A stretch of DNA of 64,000 nucleotides from Rhizodiscina lignyota (lineage: Eukaryota). The position numbers and the translations under genes are program-made. The notes beneath the pieces are model-generated. The model was given only the letters and a program-made list of their open reading frames with translations, was not told where the DNA came from and ran no database searches. Below, one piece after another: positions 40,855 through 44,659 of the stretch (positions are counted from its first letter, which is position 1; every line of letters starts with the position of its first letter). The DNA lies in contig ML978130.1 in NCBI GenBank assembly GCA_010015805.1, forward strand, positions 248,001-312,000. Direction: 5' to 3'.

Positions 40855-41643
40855 TCAATCAAGCTGTTCACCCGTTGCCATGGTGTCCATGAAATCGTCG
40901 ACGCTATTAAGCGCATCAGCGAAGGTCGACTCGTTATAGCTGGTGGGCCAGTTGAAGTCAGCGAGCTCATTAACAAAGGTGAACTCGTTGGCATCAGTGA
41001 GCCCAACGACGCCAGTAGGCCCATTGAAGTTAGCGAACCCGTTGATATCAGTGAACTCATCAACGCCATTAGGCCCATTGAAATGAGCGAACCCGTTGGT
41101 ATGAGCGAGCCCGTTGACATCAGTGAACTCATCGACACCGGTAGGCCCATTGAAATTAGCGAACCTGTTGGCATCAATGGGCCCGTTGATGCCAGGGAGC
41201 CCACCTGCATTGGTATGAAGCCCGGTGAGGTTGGTGGGTGCAATAAAATCTGGACTATCAGAGAGCCAACTTGGTTCAGCAGAGAGCCCCTGAATGGCCA
41301 ACTGGCCGCTGTTGACGGTAGCTTCGTTCATATTGGCAATACTGGTGTCGACTACATCGGGAATCGCCATCGCGAGTAAGCCGGAAGACGCTGATGAAGA
41401 TGTAATAGCATAGTGAACATCTCTCAGGTGCGACTTGAGCTTGTCCTTTCGCGAGAACGGACGTTTTTGGCCTGGGAAGCTTTCACTGCGACCGCAGCCA
41501 GAGACCATACACCAAAACAGTTCTGTTGGCTGGTGGATGGTGTTCTGATGGCGACGTAAGTCGGAAGCTCTTGTGAAGGTCTTCGCGCACTCTGGCCAAT
41601 CACAGCGGAATCGAGCGCCCTCTTGGCATCGGCTACATGACAC
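40855..41643 (-). CDS. C2H2 zinc-finger protein with hexapeptide-repeat C-terminus (5' exons unresolved)
   Basis: CDWPECAKTFTRASDLRRHQNTIH and CMVSGC...FSRKDKLKSHLRDVH. An upstream GTAAGC...TAG intron lies near 41632-41683. Confidence 0.8.
   Translation of the reverse strand: MSCSRCQEGARFRCDWPECAKTFTRASDLRRHQNTIHQPTELFWCMVSGCGRSESFPGQKRPFSRKDKLKSHLRDVHYAITSSSASSGLLAMAIPDVVDTSIANMNEATVNSGQLAIQGLSAEPSWLSDSPDFIAPTNLTGLHTNAGGLPGINGPIDANRFANFNGPTGVDEFTDVNGLAHTNGFAHFNGPNGVDEFTDINGFANFNGPTGVVGLTDANEFTFVNELADFNWPTSYNESTFADALNSVDDFMDTMATGEQLD
40885..41190 (-). repeat. Coding degenerate 18-bp (6-aa) tandem repeat, about 17 units
   Basis: INGPID ANRFAN FNGPTG VDEFTD VNGLAH TNGFAH FNGPNG VDEFTD INGFAN FNGPTG and so on. 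Confidence 0.85.
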
Positions 41644-42201
41644 GTCATCATAGTGGCCAGTGCGAGACAGGGCGGTGGCTTACCTATTATTCGAACAATG
41701 TATGACGGCCTGGGAACCTGTGGGCGAGTTTGAAGAGGCATACCTGCTTCTCGTTCAAAAAGATACTCACGGAGAGTCTCCGTCGTCGCCAAGCATGGAA
41801 ATGCCTTGCTCCAAATGCATTTCGGCAGGGATATTCGTGTAGGCCGCCATCAGGCAACGAAGGATAGTGTGACGAATTGAAGAGCTTGAAGAAAGTGACA
41901 GGTGTATGGGTCTACCTGTATCATTGACGAAGTCAGTGTGGGAGCGAGGTCCTCTTATGTTCTCACGCATTGAATTTGACCCCGGACACCCACTCTCTCT
42001 CTGTGTCCTAAGTCTTGGCCTCACTTTGCGCCCCCAATGTTGCCCATCCTTGTGCCAAGATCCAGATTCCACTTTCAGCTTTCAGCACGATACTTGAGAG
42101 GACTTGCGGCCGAGCGCGCAAGCTTCTATCGCTTTTTCCTCTGTTCTGCATGTTTCGGCCCTCTGAGCGTGAAGATTTCATCGGCCACTGAGCGTTCAGA
42201 A

Positions 42202-44152
42202 ATGGGTTCCAAAAGAGAGCATGCTCACGCCAACTACCACCCAAATAGTGAAGGCAGCGGACCTGTCAAGTGTGATAAATGTCGGAAGACCTTCGTTCGA
42301 CGGGGACAACTTAAGTGAGCGTTCTGTTATTTCCACTGTAAATTAGCAGCCACTGATCATTGGAAGCCGCCATTACAAAACTCATACCAAGCCATATCGC
42401 TGTAACGATTGTAGTAAAGGATTTGCACTGCAAACTGATCTCGAGCGACACAAGTCTAAACATGCAACTGTCAAATTGCGCTTTCACTGCAAAGTTTCTG
42501 GATGCAAATTTGAAGGGGCTTCGCGAAAAGATAATTTACGAAGACATATTCGGAACAGTCATGGAGGCGAAGCGGGCCTGGTGAATGGACTACAAGAGGA
42601 AGAGATCAGGGCGTTCTGCAACCAGGCGCTGTTAGAGCGTAAGCGGTTGATGGAAGCTTTGACTCTGCTCGTAGCGGCACAATTTGGGAATGACCGGATC
42701 CTGGGCTTGCTGATCGGCAATGGGATTGATGTTGAGATGGAATCCGATCAAGGAAAGACAGCCCTTCACATCGCCGCAGCGAAAGGCTACACGACCTCTG
42801 TGCAAATCCTGCTCGACGCTGGAGCCGACAGCGAGGCAAAAGACAATTGGAGCAATTTCGCACTCCACGAAGCAGCCCGGCTAGGGCATACTAGCGCTGT
42901 ACGATTACTTATTCAAAGAGGAGCCGCGCTCCAGGGTGTGAATGAGGATAGATACACTGCGCTACATCTTGCAGCTGCTGAGGGGCATATCACTGCCACG
43001 CGAATACTACTACAGAGTGGCTCAGAGCTCAATGCGAAATCGTATGCTGGGAGAACAGCATTACATCTAGCAATCCTGAAGGGACACAATGATGTTGCAA
43101 ATCTACTCTTAGATAATGGGGCGGACGCCGAATCAAAGACAAGCAGTGGCATAAAGCCGGTACATTTTGCGTTCAAGGCTGGGAACAAGGCATTAGTGGA
43201 GCGGCTCCTTCAAGGAACCATACGAGAGAGGGCGGCAATATTTAAAGACCCAGCATTCCTACGACTCGCGGCCAGAAATAGGAATAAAGATGTGCTGCAG
43301 CTGCTCCTCAAGAGCGGAGCGGATGTCAACGCAACGAGTAGAGACAGCCGGACTGCGCTTAAACAGGCCGTGCTAAGTGGTAACGAACCTGTCGTCCAAC
43401 TACTCCTTGAGAGCGGAGCGGACATCAACGCAGATAGCCATAGCGGGACAGCGCTACAACAGGCAGTGGCAGATGATAACGAACCCATCGTCCGGCTACT
43501 CCTTGAGAGTGGAGCGAACATCGACGCCGATAGCCATAGCGGGACAGCGCTACAACAGGCAGTAATAAATAATAACGAACATATTATCCGACTGCTCCTT
43601 GAGAGCGGAGCGGATATCAACGCAGATGGACGTAGGGGGACAGCGTTGCAAGAGGCAGTAACAGATGATAACGAACGTATTATCCAACTGCTCCTTGAGA
43701 GTGGGGCGGACGTCAACTCACATGATGAATACCTCGGGACTGCACTACAACAGGCAGTAACATCTAATAACGAACGTATCGTTCAACTACTCCTTGAGGG
43801 CGGAGCGGACGTCAACTTAAATAGAGGCTTCTTCGGGACTGCGCTTCAACAGGCAGTAACAAATAGTAACGAACGTGTCGTTCAACTACTCCTTGAGAAC
43901 GGAGCGGACGTCAACGTAGAGGGAAGACACCGCGGGACTGCACTACAACAGGCAGTAGAAAGGAGCAACGATCGTATCGTTCAACTACTCCTTGAGAGCG
44001 GAGAGAATGTCAATGCAAAGAGTAGAGATGAACAGACTACGCCGCTACAACTGGCAATAGCAAACGGTGACGAGTTTATCGTCCAGCTTCTCCTTAAGCG
44101 TGGAGCGAGCCTCACCTCAAATGGAGGATATGCCGAGACAGCGCTAGAGTAG
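42202..44152 (+). CDS. Three C2H2 zinc fingers fused to an ankyrin-repeat array (intron 42315-42366)
   Basis: Spliced N-terminus: CDKC...RHYKTH, CNDC...RHKSKH, CKVSGC...RHIRNSH. Then many TALH/TALQQA...LLESGADIN repeats. Confidence 0.9.
43300..44020 (+). repeat. Highly similar ~96-99 bp ankyrin-coding tandem repeats
   Basis: Recurrent ctccttgagagcggagcggac..caac..acagcgctacaacaggcagt units, including two near-identical gatagccatagcgggacagcgctacaacaggcagt copies. Confidence 0.88.
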
Positions 44153-44659
44153 CTTGACTAGACGGCGGAAATGGCCACGTCACACGGTCACCGTCGTAGA
44201 AGTCCTATTCGAGCGGGGAGCGGACATCGTGGAATTAGTGATGAAAGCTAAAAGATTTGCCATTGCTATGGCAGGCTCGGCACAGGTGTTGACGCCTTGG
44301 CATTTTTTGAAGTGTACGCGGTGATAGGGGATGAAATGTGACCGCCGGGTATGGACTTTTTCTCGATCGAACAAGTCCTCGAAGTTGTCGTGAAAATAGT
44401 CAGGAAGTATTATCGTAACAGAAGGTTGAGGTCCTCCCGAGTGCTCCTTACCTGCTTATCGTACTCTATGTGTCTACCCATGTCCATGCCAGGACAGATC
44501 TTACTTATCGATAAGCGCACGTGATTGTCAAATTCTTAGCCACTTCTCCATGCTCTGAAAAGTCCGGCGACATTTTCTCCTCTCGACGACAAGAAAGTCG
44601 CATAGTGCGGATGATCTTCACATTCTATTTTCATAAGTGTGTGTGCTGTGGGTCGACAG

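Follow-up and report, generated by a model that had tools for sequence, protein, structure and literature searches.

Architecture of the locus

We analyzed a 64,000-nt stretch of the Rhizodiscina lignyota genome (hereafter the window) and found one real, intact-looking gene of a filamentous ascomycete on its forward strand, running from an ATG at 42202 to a TAG at 44150-44152 with a spliced frame that is open throughout and encodes 632 amino acids. Exon 1 (42202..42314) holds the ATG and the N-terminal half of finger 1 (C24, C27), and a 52-nt GT-AG intron (42315..42366; donor GTGAGC, CTGAT branch-like site) splits this finger. Exon 2 (42367..44152) encodes the remainder of finger 1, fingers 2 and 3, a linker and 15 ankyrin repeats and ends in the TAG at 44150-44152. 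Among the GT..AG pairings that we tried, only this one yielded a single open frame. Of 24 relatives searched, 15 have a half-finger peptide matching exon 1 at a distance of 54-70 nt upstream from the exon-2 match, and the frame closes at most 7 codons upstream of the equivalent intron point in 31 of 38 related loci. One relative (L027) has an intronless finger 1 that is read straight through, and its RGDY-N-RH matches the window's predicted junction RGQL-N-RH. The model thus bears out the original prediction that splicing joins three zinc fingers to roughly 14 ankyrin repeats in one protein lacking NACHT and NB-ARC, as a Pfam scan of exons 1 and 2 reported neither domain. Sequence support came from one DNA run containing the stretch (X1). 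Its contigs, which may share their raw data with the assembly, match the window and are interrupted at 43438-43563, within the two repeats that resemble each other most. The surroundings consist of housekeeping and metabolic genes at flat GC, and the 13 large ORFs scanned in the window include no Pfam-recognizable transposon and no NLR gene.

The three C2H2 fingers span C24-H44 (intron-split), C50-H70 (42401..42463; C-x2-C-x12-H-x3-H, preceded by a TKPY linker) and C79-H103 (42488..42562; C-x4-C-x13-H-x4-H). All zinc ligands are present, and the fingers follow the classical C-x2-4-C-x12-H-x3-5-H pattern with its Phe/Leu core, exactly so in fingers 1 and 2. Pfam called finger 2 alone, and weakly (zf-C2H2, E 0.0023, 18.7 bits against a cut-off of 25.2); no finger of the window protein reached that cut-off. 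A profile of the finger region matched solved DNA-binding fingers of WT1, CTCF, TFIIIA, YY1, GLI and Zif268 (E down to 1e-31), with alignments covering two fingers of the first five. The finger 3 helix, R-K-D-N-L-x-R-H, is invariant in five aligned sequences (R53 K54 D55 N56 L57 R59 H60, exon-2 numbering). Based on this helix and the TKPY linker, we predict that the fingers bind DNA.

Upstream, a second finger gene is arranged head-to-head with the first. Its main ORF of 274 aa (40858..41679, reverse strand) encodes a two-finger C2H2 module followed by an acidic and aromatic-rich tail, and the gene probably has one or more further 5' exons reaching to about 41850. The two fingers are paralogous to fingers 2-3 of the window protein (40% identity over 67 aa, E 4e-10), and the repetitive tail is encoded by 54/72-nt tandem repeats (40981..41190, reverse strand). 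Similar degenerate peptide repeats occur in the neighbor genes of L001, L002, L003, L006, L007 and L009. A divergent two-finger partner was found upstream in 14 of the 24 related loci with at least 1.8 kb of upstream flank, and also in L009 and L010, where less flank was available. The zinc-finger-ankyrin protein probably works together with its paralogous two-finger partner. Short words shared between the loci (GCAGGTATGCC and similar, in 5-7 of 8 loci) were considered as a common promoter motif and rejected, as they sit in the apparent 5' exon and splice donor of the neighbor.

A conserved family of finger-ankyrin proteins

Judged by its sequence, the window gene is a member of a conserved, widespread and uncharacterized fungal family. 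We defined the family by a single ORF that spans fingers 2-3, a conserved linker and ankyrin repeat 1 and by an intron that interrupts finger 1 directly ahead of 'RH.KTH'; the window gene has each of these features, as well as the divergent paralogous two-finger gene immediately upstream. Members share a layout that begins with three classical C2H2 fingers and a helical linker, continues with six or seven conserved ankyrin repeats and closes with a C-terminal NLR-type array ('TALQxA...GADVN'). The domain-architecture survey suggested with the original prediction came out in favor of the fusion: fingers and ankyrins share one frame in two Botrytis proteins, and ankyrin repeats continue the finger ORF in all 37 metagenomic loci scanned, none of whose ORFs contains NACHT or NB-ARC at E<=1e-8. 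These relatives are mostly anonymous metagenomic contigs and may be orthologues or paralogues of the window gene. Weaker, finger-only loci (L039-L080) were set aside as other finger proteins after 47 of their 78 downstream ORFs were scanned and showed neither ankyrin repeats nor NACHT.

The named relatives are B. byssoidea EAE97_001741 (P0018, 764 aa) and B. elliptica BELL_0273g00060 (P0167, 696 aa), both annotated as uncharacterized 'C2H2-type domain-containing proteins'. Like the window protein, they carry three N-terminal C2H2 fingers, a linker, canonical ankyrins and a C-terminal 'GTALQEAV' block, and P0018 is 34% identical to the window protein over 98% of the query. They differ from it in a longer, irregular middle and an intact C-terminal repeat, and the finger region is 39% identical. 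A full-text literature search returned no description of a C2H2-ankyrin family in the portions of text that it covered, and Protein Atlas returned generic ankyrin clusters only. A word-index search with residues 1-110 alone gave no match although relatives exist, which is a failure of sensitivity, and an exhaustive finger-profile search yielded chiefly poly-finger proteins, with 4 family members among the 150 matches listed.

The fingers are the slowest-evolving part of the family: their conservation exceeds that of the ankyrins in each of the 10 locus pairs compared, and in the Botrytis pair as well.

An ankyrin array with two halves

The array of the window protein contains 15 ankyrin repeats and the first residues of a 16th; a custom HMM finds 14 and Pfam reports Ank_2 (E 3e-86) with 13 Ank stretches. 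Repeats 1-7 (42635..43339) are mostly of the canonical TALH type. For the six units that the HMM detects here (repeats 1-5 and 7), the best match in L001 falls at the same or nearly the same ordinal position with 59-86% identity, as compared to 38-52% against other units of their own protein. The N-terminal half is therefore conserved and positionally orthologous across the family. The C-terminal block (repeats 8-14, 43340..44026) is an internally conserved series of 'GTALQQAV..NERIVQLLLESGADVN' units with variable loops. Five of its seven units match their own protein best, one ties and the remaining unit (WIN.7) favors its own protein only slightly over a relative; no unit has a fixed positional counterpart.

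Tandem Repeats Finder detects a 99-nt period in this region (7.3 copies, 78% matches, 43304-44017), and the repeat family and its period are more than chance. The block had been described as nearly identical at the DNA level, which our measurements contradict: repeats 8-14 share a mean pairwise DNA identity of 76% (range 68-86%) and a mean protein identity of 64% (55-77%), or 76% to their consensus over 31 framework columns. Framework codons give dS of about 0.52, dN of 0.08-0.10 and pS of 0.36-0.39. Because the repeats have diverged substantially at synonymous sites, nothing in the window copy indicates recent homogenization or rapid turnover. The variable loops named in the original prediction (DSHS, DGRR, DEYL, RGFF, GRHR) were recovered, with differences concentrated in the loop before 'TAL' and in helix-1/turn columns 12-14 and 17. 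Repeat-induced point mutation (RIP) was considered as a source of substitution in the block and rejected, as changes away from the repeat consensus are symmetric (37 C>T plus G>A versus 37 T>C plus A>G). By the usual thresholds the dinucleotide indices of the block are RIP-like (TpA/ApT 1.24 and (CpA+TpG)/(ApC+GpT) 0.90, versus 0.66 and 1.27 for the window), and we put this down to the repeated motif itself.

Across the family, repeats are gained and lost in the C-terminal array as it evolves. Between L013 and L014, identity is 98% for the fingers and 90% for the N-terminal ankyrins, but the repeat counts are 18 and 13, respectively, and a difference of 68 aa between the two Botrytis orthologues falls within the TALQEAV block. 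Nearest-neighbor repeats are 0.88-0.96 identical in L013 and up to 1.00 in L009, and framework pS between repeats is 0.02 in L014, 0.11 in L013 and 0.16 in L009. We examined six columns chosen a priori, which we take from the designed-ankyrin literature to be the binding-surface positions of the repeat. In all 11 genes tested, pN at these columns was 0.17-0.57 versus 0.08-0.16 elsewhere, a contrast between paralogous repeats within a gene, not between alleles, in which loop columns are perhaps misaligned where loop lengths differ. At most 18 of 2000 random column sets reached the observed value in 9 of the 11 genes, the exceptions being L014 (306/2000) and L001 (91/2000). Differences between repeats thus fall mostly at binding-surface positions on an otherwise conserved scaffold.

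The repeat type itself points to fungal NLRs. Among the 120 proteins listed, 17 of the 20 best matches to the C-terminal block carry NACHT, NPHP3_N or GPIID_WHD marks, compared to 50 of the 120 overall, and NLR-marked proteins make up 34 of the best 40. The window block is of the same repeat subtype as the ankyrin arrays of NLR-marked proteins, with 43-50% identity. Variation at beta-hairpin/loop and inner-helix positions, as described for NLR arrays in two studies (PMC4986451; PMC13449251), is likewise shared, as are the changes in repeat number and the near-identical repeats of some family members. In the first of these (Dyrka et al. 2014, PMC4986451), high internal conservation requires 85% or more identity between repeats across 100 aa or more (T-REKS PSIM 0.85). 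Repeats 8-14 fall below this level at 64% pairwise and 76% to consensus, by our own identity measure rather than T-REKS. A laxer cut-off of Psim >= 0.7 appears in PMC13449251; the identity to consensus of 0.76-0.77 lies above this value, computed without T-REKS and without the variable-length loops. The proposed likeness to the internally conserved repeats of NLR sensors therefore holds for the kinship of the array, with 17 of the 20 best listed matches NLR-marked, and fails for the degree of conservation, the window block being below 85% identity. Of the features by which NLRs are recognized, the window protein has C-terminal superstructure-forming repeats (ANK, TPR or WD) and no central NACHT or NB-ARC NTPase. 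N-terminal to the repeats it carries only C2H2 fingers and none of the effector or death domains of NLRs (HET, HeLo, PNP_UDP, patatin and others).

A truncated copy and the possible role of the family

The window copy ends abnormally. A diverged repeat 15 and the first residues of repeat 16 (GGYAETALE) occupy 44027..44149, and a remnant of the last ankyrin repeat and C-terminal tail follows on the same strand (44150..44324), interrupted by TAG at 44150, TAG at 44159 and a frame change. When aligned here, the L006 and L003 C-termini cover 44081-44149 in the gene frame and continue at 44172-44270 in a different one (E 6e-4 and 0.02). Independent X1 contigs show 0 differences from the window over 43534-44600 at a depth of about 155, so the break is no assembly slip as far as a single run can tell. 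We considered a short intron (about 44148-44198) that would rescue the 3' end and rejected it by eye: it would need GTAGCT as its donor, lacks a CTRAY branch site and would contain recognizable repeat-coding remnants. Relatives retain the last repeat and tail, whereas the window copy has lost both to the stop and frameshift at 44150-44172 and may be losing function.

Together our results suggest a conserved zinc-finger-ankyrin family acting as DNA-binding regulators tuned by a variable NLR-type array, with the window copy a weak example; we give this reading a probability of roughly 0.55. In such a protein the zinc fingers would bind DNA, the conserved N-terminal repeats would hold a constant partner or play a structural role, and the variable C-terminal array would recognize a changeable ligand or protein and so tune the regulator. 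A sensor-transcription factor is plausible for the family and is weakly supported for the window copy. The original prediction of a rapidly diversifying one-component protein accordingly survives in part: fingers and ankyrins do form one gene without an NTPase, but the window repeats are synonymously diverged. With an old, diverged array and a lost capping repeat, the window copy is a weak and possibly decaying example rather than a rapidly diversifying one. A bolder version would make the locus a two-gene module, in which an NLR-type, shuffling, hypervariable sensor on a DNA-binding protein is paired with a head-to-head paralogue bearing activation-domain-like acidic/aromatic repeats, and recognition, possibly of the neighbor's repeats, switches transcription directly. 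We regard this version as improbable.

The protein could instead be an ordinary conserved regulator or adaptor, its C-terminal block a set of old tandem duplications under purifying selection on the ankyrin scaffold and its variable columns simply the least constrained. In ankyrin repeats at large, conservation is lowest at the loop and helix-1 positions, the synonymous differences between the window repeats (framework dS of about 0.52) are about those of old paralogues, and the symmetric consensus substitutions and the flat-GC surroundings, with no Pfam-recognizable transposon or NLR gene among the 13 large ORFs scanned, fit this account as well. What it leaves unexplained are the near-identical repeats (pS 0.02-0.17) with high surface-column pN in relatives such as L014, L013 and L009, and repeat counts of 13 and 18 in two genes whose remaining parts are 98% and 90% identical, and we consider it doubtful. 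The window copy might also be in early decay, as a pseudogene or truncated allele disabled or weakened by loss of its capping repeat and tail, in a family that is perhaps functional elsewhere. The two TAG codons and frame change that, in the window copy, break what corresponds to the last repeat and tail of L003 and L006, the remainder still recognizable downstream and the agreement of the deeply covered single run all speak for decay, as does the absence of the window protein among the 120 proteins listed, whereas a separate search returned a 171-aa model of the neighbor. Its 632-codon frame is nevertheless intact with every zinc ligand in place, framework dN between repeats is low (0.08-0.10) and loss of one terminal repeat need not abolish function; we judge decay to be a rather unlikely account of the locus.

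It is highly improbable that the fingers bind protein or RNA instead of DNA, in which case the protein would be a scaffold in the cytoplasm or would regulate, or serve as a decoy for, NLRs of the same ankyrin type. The non-standard spacing of finger 3 (x13, H-x4-H), a Leu that we read by eye where finger 2 would usually have a base-contacting residue, and an ankyrin block closest to NLR arrays lean toward such a role, and PMC12258605 reports C2H2 fingers in 34 Sordariales NLRs and discusses them as possible binding or decoy domains. Against it, the TKPY linker between fingers 1 and 2 and the R-K-D-N-L-R-R-H helix of finger 3 resemble those of classical DNA-reading fingers, the finger profile aligns over two fingers of DNA-bound structures and the 13 large ORFs scanned in the window include no NLR gene. 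We therefore retain the reading of a DNA-binding regulator tuned by its array.

Work on highly conserved, hypervariable ankyrin, TPR and WD arrays in fungi has dealt with them almost solely as the sensor ends of NLRs. In the papers that we consulted, such arrays in proteins without an ATPase appear only as statistics (30-40% of occurrences in Dikarya, and 5.59% of non-ATPase repeat proteins), and the family described here is a concrete and widespread example, in which the array is fused to conserved zinc fingers and a paralogous finger gene lies alongside. Unlike NLRs, the family has neither NACHT/NB-ARC nor a cell-death effector and carries a DNA-binding-type module in their place. If the array senses, it would offer a tractable route to what NLR-type ankyrin arrays recognize, read out through gene expression instead of cell death; if the two-gene module is true, an NLR-style recognition surface would be wired to gene expression without an NTPase or death domain. 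The window itself is a more modest case, an older and C-terminally truncated member.

Among other known systems, ANKZF1/Vms1 (C2H2, ankyrin and a VLRF1 release-factor-like domain) also combines a C2H2 finger with ankyrins and gave a weak cluster match (score 0.80, where a score below 0.9 is a lead only). It was rejected as the same family, as Pfam finds no VLRF1 domain in the window protein. Bacterial STAND transcription factors of the MalT and AfsR type share the joining of a repeat-type sensor to a DNA-binding domain in a 'one-component' logic, but depend on a central NTPase switch that the window protein lacks. In NF-kB p105/p100, a Rel-homology DNA-binding domain is followed by a C-terminal IkB-like ankyrin array, and fungal Swi6/Swi4/Mbp1 combine an APSES domain with ankyrins, so that, as in the present family, a DNA-binding-type domain and an ankyrin array share one chain. 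These proteins differ from the family in their unrelated DNA-binding folds and short, fixed arrays of 4-7 repeats, which are not known for repeat turnover. An array controlling the DNA-binding part of its own chain, as in NF-kB p105, would be the nearest mechanistic analogy for the family.

Fingers and ankyrins in one gene

The finger-ankyrin gene starts at an ATG at 42202 (+) and, past a 52-nt intron (42315-42366; GTGAGC donor, CTGAT branch-like site, AG acceptor), stays in open frame from the intron end to a TAG at 44150-44152. Joining the exons by script gave 632 codons with a single stop, at the end, and the joined translation bears out the original prediction that splicing reveals three zinc fingers: finger 1 (C24-H44), interrupted by the intron; finger 2 (C50-H70), just after a TKPY linker; and finger 3 (C79-H103), spaced C-x4-C-x13-H-x4-H. 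Being short, the fingers score poorly in Pfam (zf-C2H2 E 0.0023, under its cut-off); a finger-region profile from five family members matched solved DNA-binding fingers, with some alignments covering two fingers of WT1, CTCF, TFIIIA, YY1 and GLI. A helical linker leads into the ankyrin array, with 15 repeats where roughly 14 had been proposed, and the opening residues of a 16th (Ank_2 E 3e-86). As predicted, the Pfam scan found no NACHT or NB-ARC domain in the protein; none occurred either among 13 large neighbouring ORFs scanned in the window, whose products have ordinary housekeeping or metabolic roles and whose surrounding DNA has a flat GC content of 50%.

The case that fingers and ankyrins would form one gene is comparative. 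Fingers 2-3 and every ankyrin repeat lie within a single ORF in the window, and fingers 2-3 share one ORF with ankyrins in all 37 metagenomic loci scanned (Ank_2 E<=1e-11), a scan that left out L010, whose ORF meets the contig end at 80 aa, and the short ORFs of L039 and L040. Of 24 loci searched for the exon-1 half-finger, 15 have a recognisable one 54-70 nt upstream of where exon 2 matches, and it was not found in L011, L013, L017, L023, L026, L027, L030, L033 and L035; the frame closes at most 7 codons upstream of the exon-2 junction point in 31/38 loci. One metagenomic locus, L027 (59-1849), has no intron, and its finger 1 is continuous as '...CSRSFDTRGDYNRHLKTH', agreeing with the predicted splice junction. 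Either the intron was lost in that lineage or the contig may derive from cDNA.

A whole-protein search listed 120 proteins, every one an ankyrin protein, two of which also begin with fingers (P0018 from Botrytis byssoidea and the 804-aa P0061). An exhaustive profile search added P0167 from B. elliptica, P0169 and two fragments 76% and 65% identical to the N-terminus of the window protein, and a metagenome scan yielded 143 related stretches; 80 of these were retained. The window protein itself was absent from the 120 listed, where a self-match was expected first; the source protein set may lack it or model it differently. Two metagenomic loci outside the family, with weaker matches to the fingers only, have a HET-domain ORF 1.7 kb downstream of the match (L057 5651-7450, L065 3509-3985).

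A head-to-head finger gene

About 0.5 kb from the finger-ankyrin ATG, on the minus strand, lies a neighbour with a main ORF of 274 aa (40858-41679) and a probable overall extent of 40858 to about 41850. It carries two fingers that are paralogues of fingers 2-3, with 40% identity over 67 aa (E 4e-10) and the signature 'FxC.VSGC...SRKD.L..H' in common; 54/72-nt DNA repeats encode its tail, a series of degenerate tandem repeats rich in acidic and aromatic residues. The database model for this neighbour stops at 171 aa, which is 62% of the ORF, and may be missing the finger part. A partner gene of 33-58% identity sits head to head at the equivalent place in L001 (2207-3310), L002 (1207-2088), L003 (935-1879), L005, L006 (2423-3247), L007 (2210-3157), L009 (2-925) and L010, and a finger-only match occupies that place in L013, L014, L016, L023, L025, L026, L029 and L032. 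Of the 24 loci whose upstream flank reaches 1.8 kb or more, 14 carry such a match, as do two loci with shorter flanks. Partner genes carry an invariant 'DDVS' motif, and their acidic/aromatic tail looks like an activation domain. Because the head-to-head place recurs in relatives, it points to functional coupling of the two genes.

Repeat turnover and a broken 3' end

The C-terminal block had been described as nearly identical at the DNA level, a claim that fails: TRF reported a 99-nt period with 7.3 copies and 78% matches, and the seven best units (repeats 8-14) average 76% DNA identity (68-86%), with framework dS ~0.52 and dN ~0.10. Their protein identity averages 64% (55-77%), or 76% to their own consensus, so the block falls below the classic threshold for calling repeats highly internally conserved (HIC), 85% over at least 100 aa (PMC4986451). 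The 76% to consensus, calculated without the dedicated tool, would exceed the Psim >= 0.7 threshold of a 2026 paper (PMC13449251). The variable positions listed by the original prediction are real and fall in the loop before 'TAL' and at unit columns 12-14, 17 and 31. Repeat-induced point mutation (RIP) was considered for 43290-44152, where the indices are RIP-like (TpA/ApT 1.24; (CpA+TpG)/(ApC+GpT) 0.90), but substitutions have no directional C-to-T bias, and the repeated motif itself is the probable source of these values.

In all pairs compared, no part is as well conserved as the fingers (for example, fingers vs N-terminal ankyrins 0.98 vs 0.90, 0.76 vs 0.65 and 0.74 vs 0.54). With a custom HMM, six N-terminal window units have positional orthologues, being 59-86% identical to the L001 unit of equal or near-equal ordinal vs 38-52% within their own protein. 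Among the C-terminal units WIN.7-13, five of seven match a unit of their own protein best (72-76%, vs 66-70% to the best match in any relative), the others giving one tie and one small margin, and none of the seven has a fixed positional counterpart. Repeat number in complete ORFs runs from 12 to 27. L013 (4001-6268) has 18 repeats vs 13 in L014 (3014-4759), with fingers 98% and N-terminal ankyrins 90% identical, and the Botrytis orthologues differ by 68 aa within the 'TALQEAV' block. The arrays of several relatives are highly conserved: the identity of a repeat to its nearest neighbour is 0.88-0.96 in L013 and reaches 1.00 in L009, and between-repeat framework pS is 0.02 in L014, 0.11 in L013 and 0.16 in L009, as against 0.32 in L002, 0.39 in the window and 0.44 in L003. 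A highly conserved array that varies in length is illustrated far better by L013 and L014 than by the window gene.

In relatives, the protein closes with a complete ankyrin repeat followed by a short tail. When the C-terminal 70 residues of L006 and L003 are aligned to the window, they follow the gene's frame through 44149 and resume at 44172-44270 in a different frame ('...TVVEVLFERGADIVELVMKAKRF...'; E 6e-4 and 0.02), with two TAG codons and ~13 extra bases between the aligned parts; the frame-broken last repeat and tail are still recognisable at 44150-44324 (+). Independently made contigs of one public run equal the window over 43534-44600 with 0 differences at a depth of ~155. Since the alignment breaks at stops and a frame change and the contigs agree, the window copy has lost its capping repeat, and it may be decaying. 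This loss, together with its old repeats, makes it a poor case for the rapid diversification originally proposed.

Likeness to NLR sensor arrays

We compared repeat variation at columns -4, -3, -1, 8, 9 and 28 (our own numbering), the six at which designed ankyrin proteins are randomised, used here as an a-priori set. At these columns pN was 0.17-0.57 vs 0.08-0.16 elsewhere in 11/11 genes. When six columns were drawn at random 2000 times, no more than 18 draws did as well in nine of these genes, the exceptions being L014 (306/2000) and L001 (91/2000). Their pN relative to overall pS was 1.2-9.9 across genes (window 1.5), contrasts that are among paralogous repeats with imperfect loop alignment and are not a formal test. 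The excess at surface columns is suggestive of diversifying pressure on the repeats.

HIC-type arrays outside NLRs are published as proportions only: NLR-like proteins make up 60-70% of Dikarya occurrences (PMC4986451), and such arrays occur in 5.59% of non-ATPase repeat proteins (PMC13449251). Our full-text literature search turned up no account of finger-ankyrin proteins that form a family and lack an NTPase. The original observation of a finger-ankyrin gene with conserved variable repeats is partly confirmed; its interpretation is partly supported for the family and weakly for the window copy. Comparison of sequences argues that this family is an NLR-type ankyrin array carried by a zinc-finger protein. 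NLR marks (GPIID_WHD, NPHP3_N or NACHT) occur on 50 of the 120 listed proteins, as counted from the result table with the family names checked on three proteins. Against this base rate, the N-terminal ankyrin half has NLR-marked proteins among 11/20 and 17/40 of its best matches, and the C-terminal block among 17/20 and 34/40. It is in the C-terminal block of the window protein that the resemblance to NLR ankyrin arrays sits.
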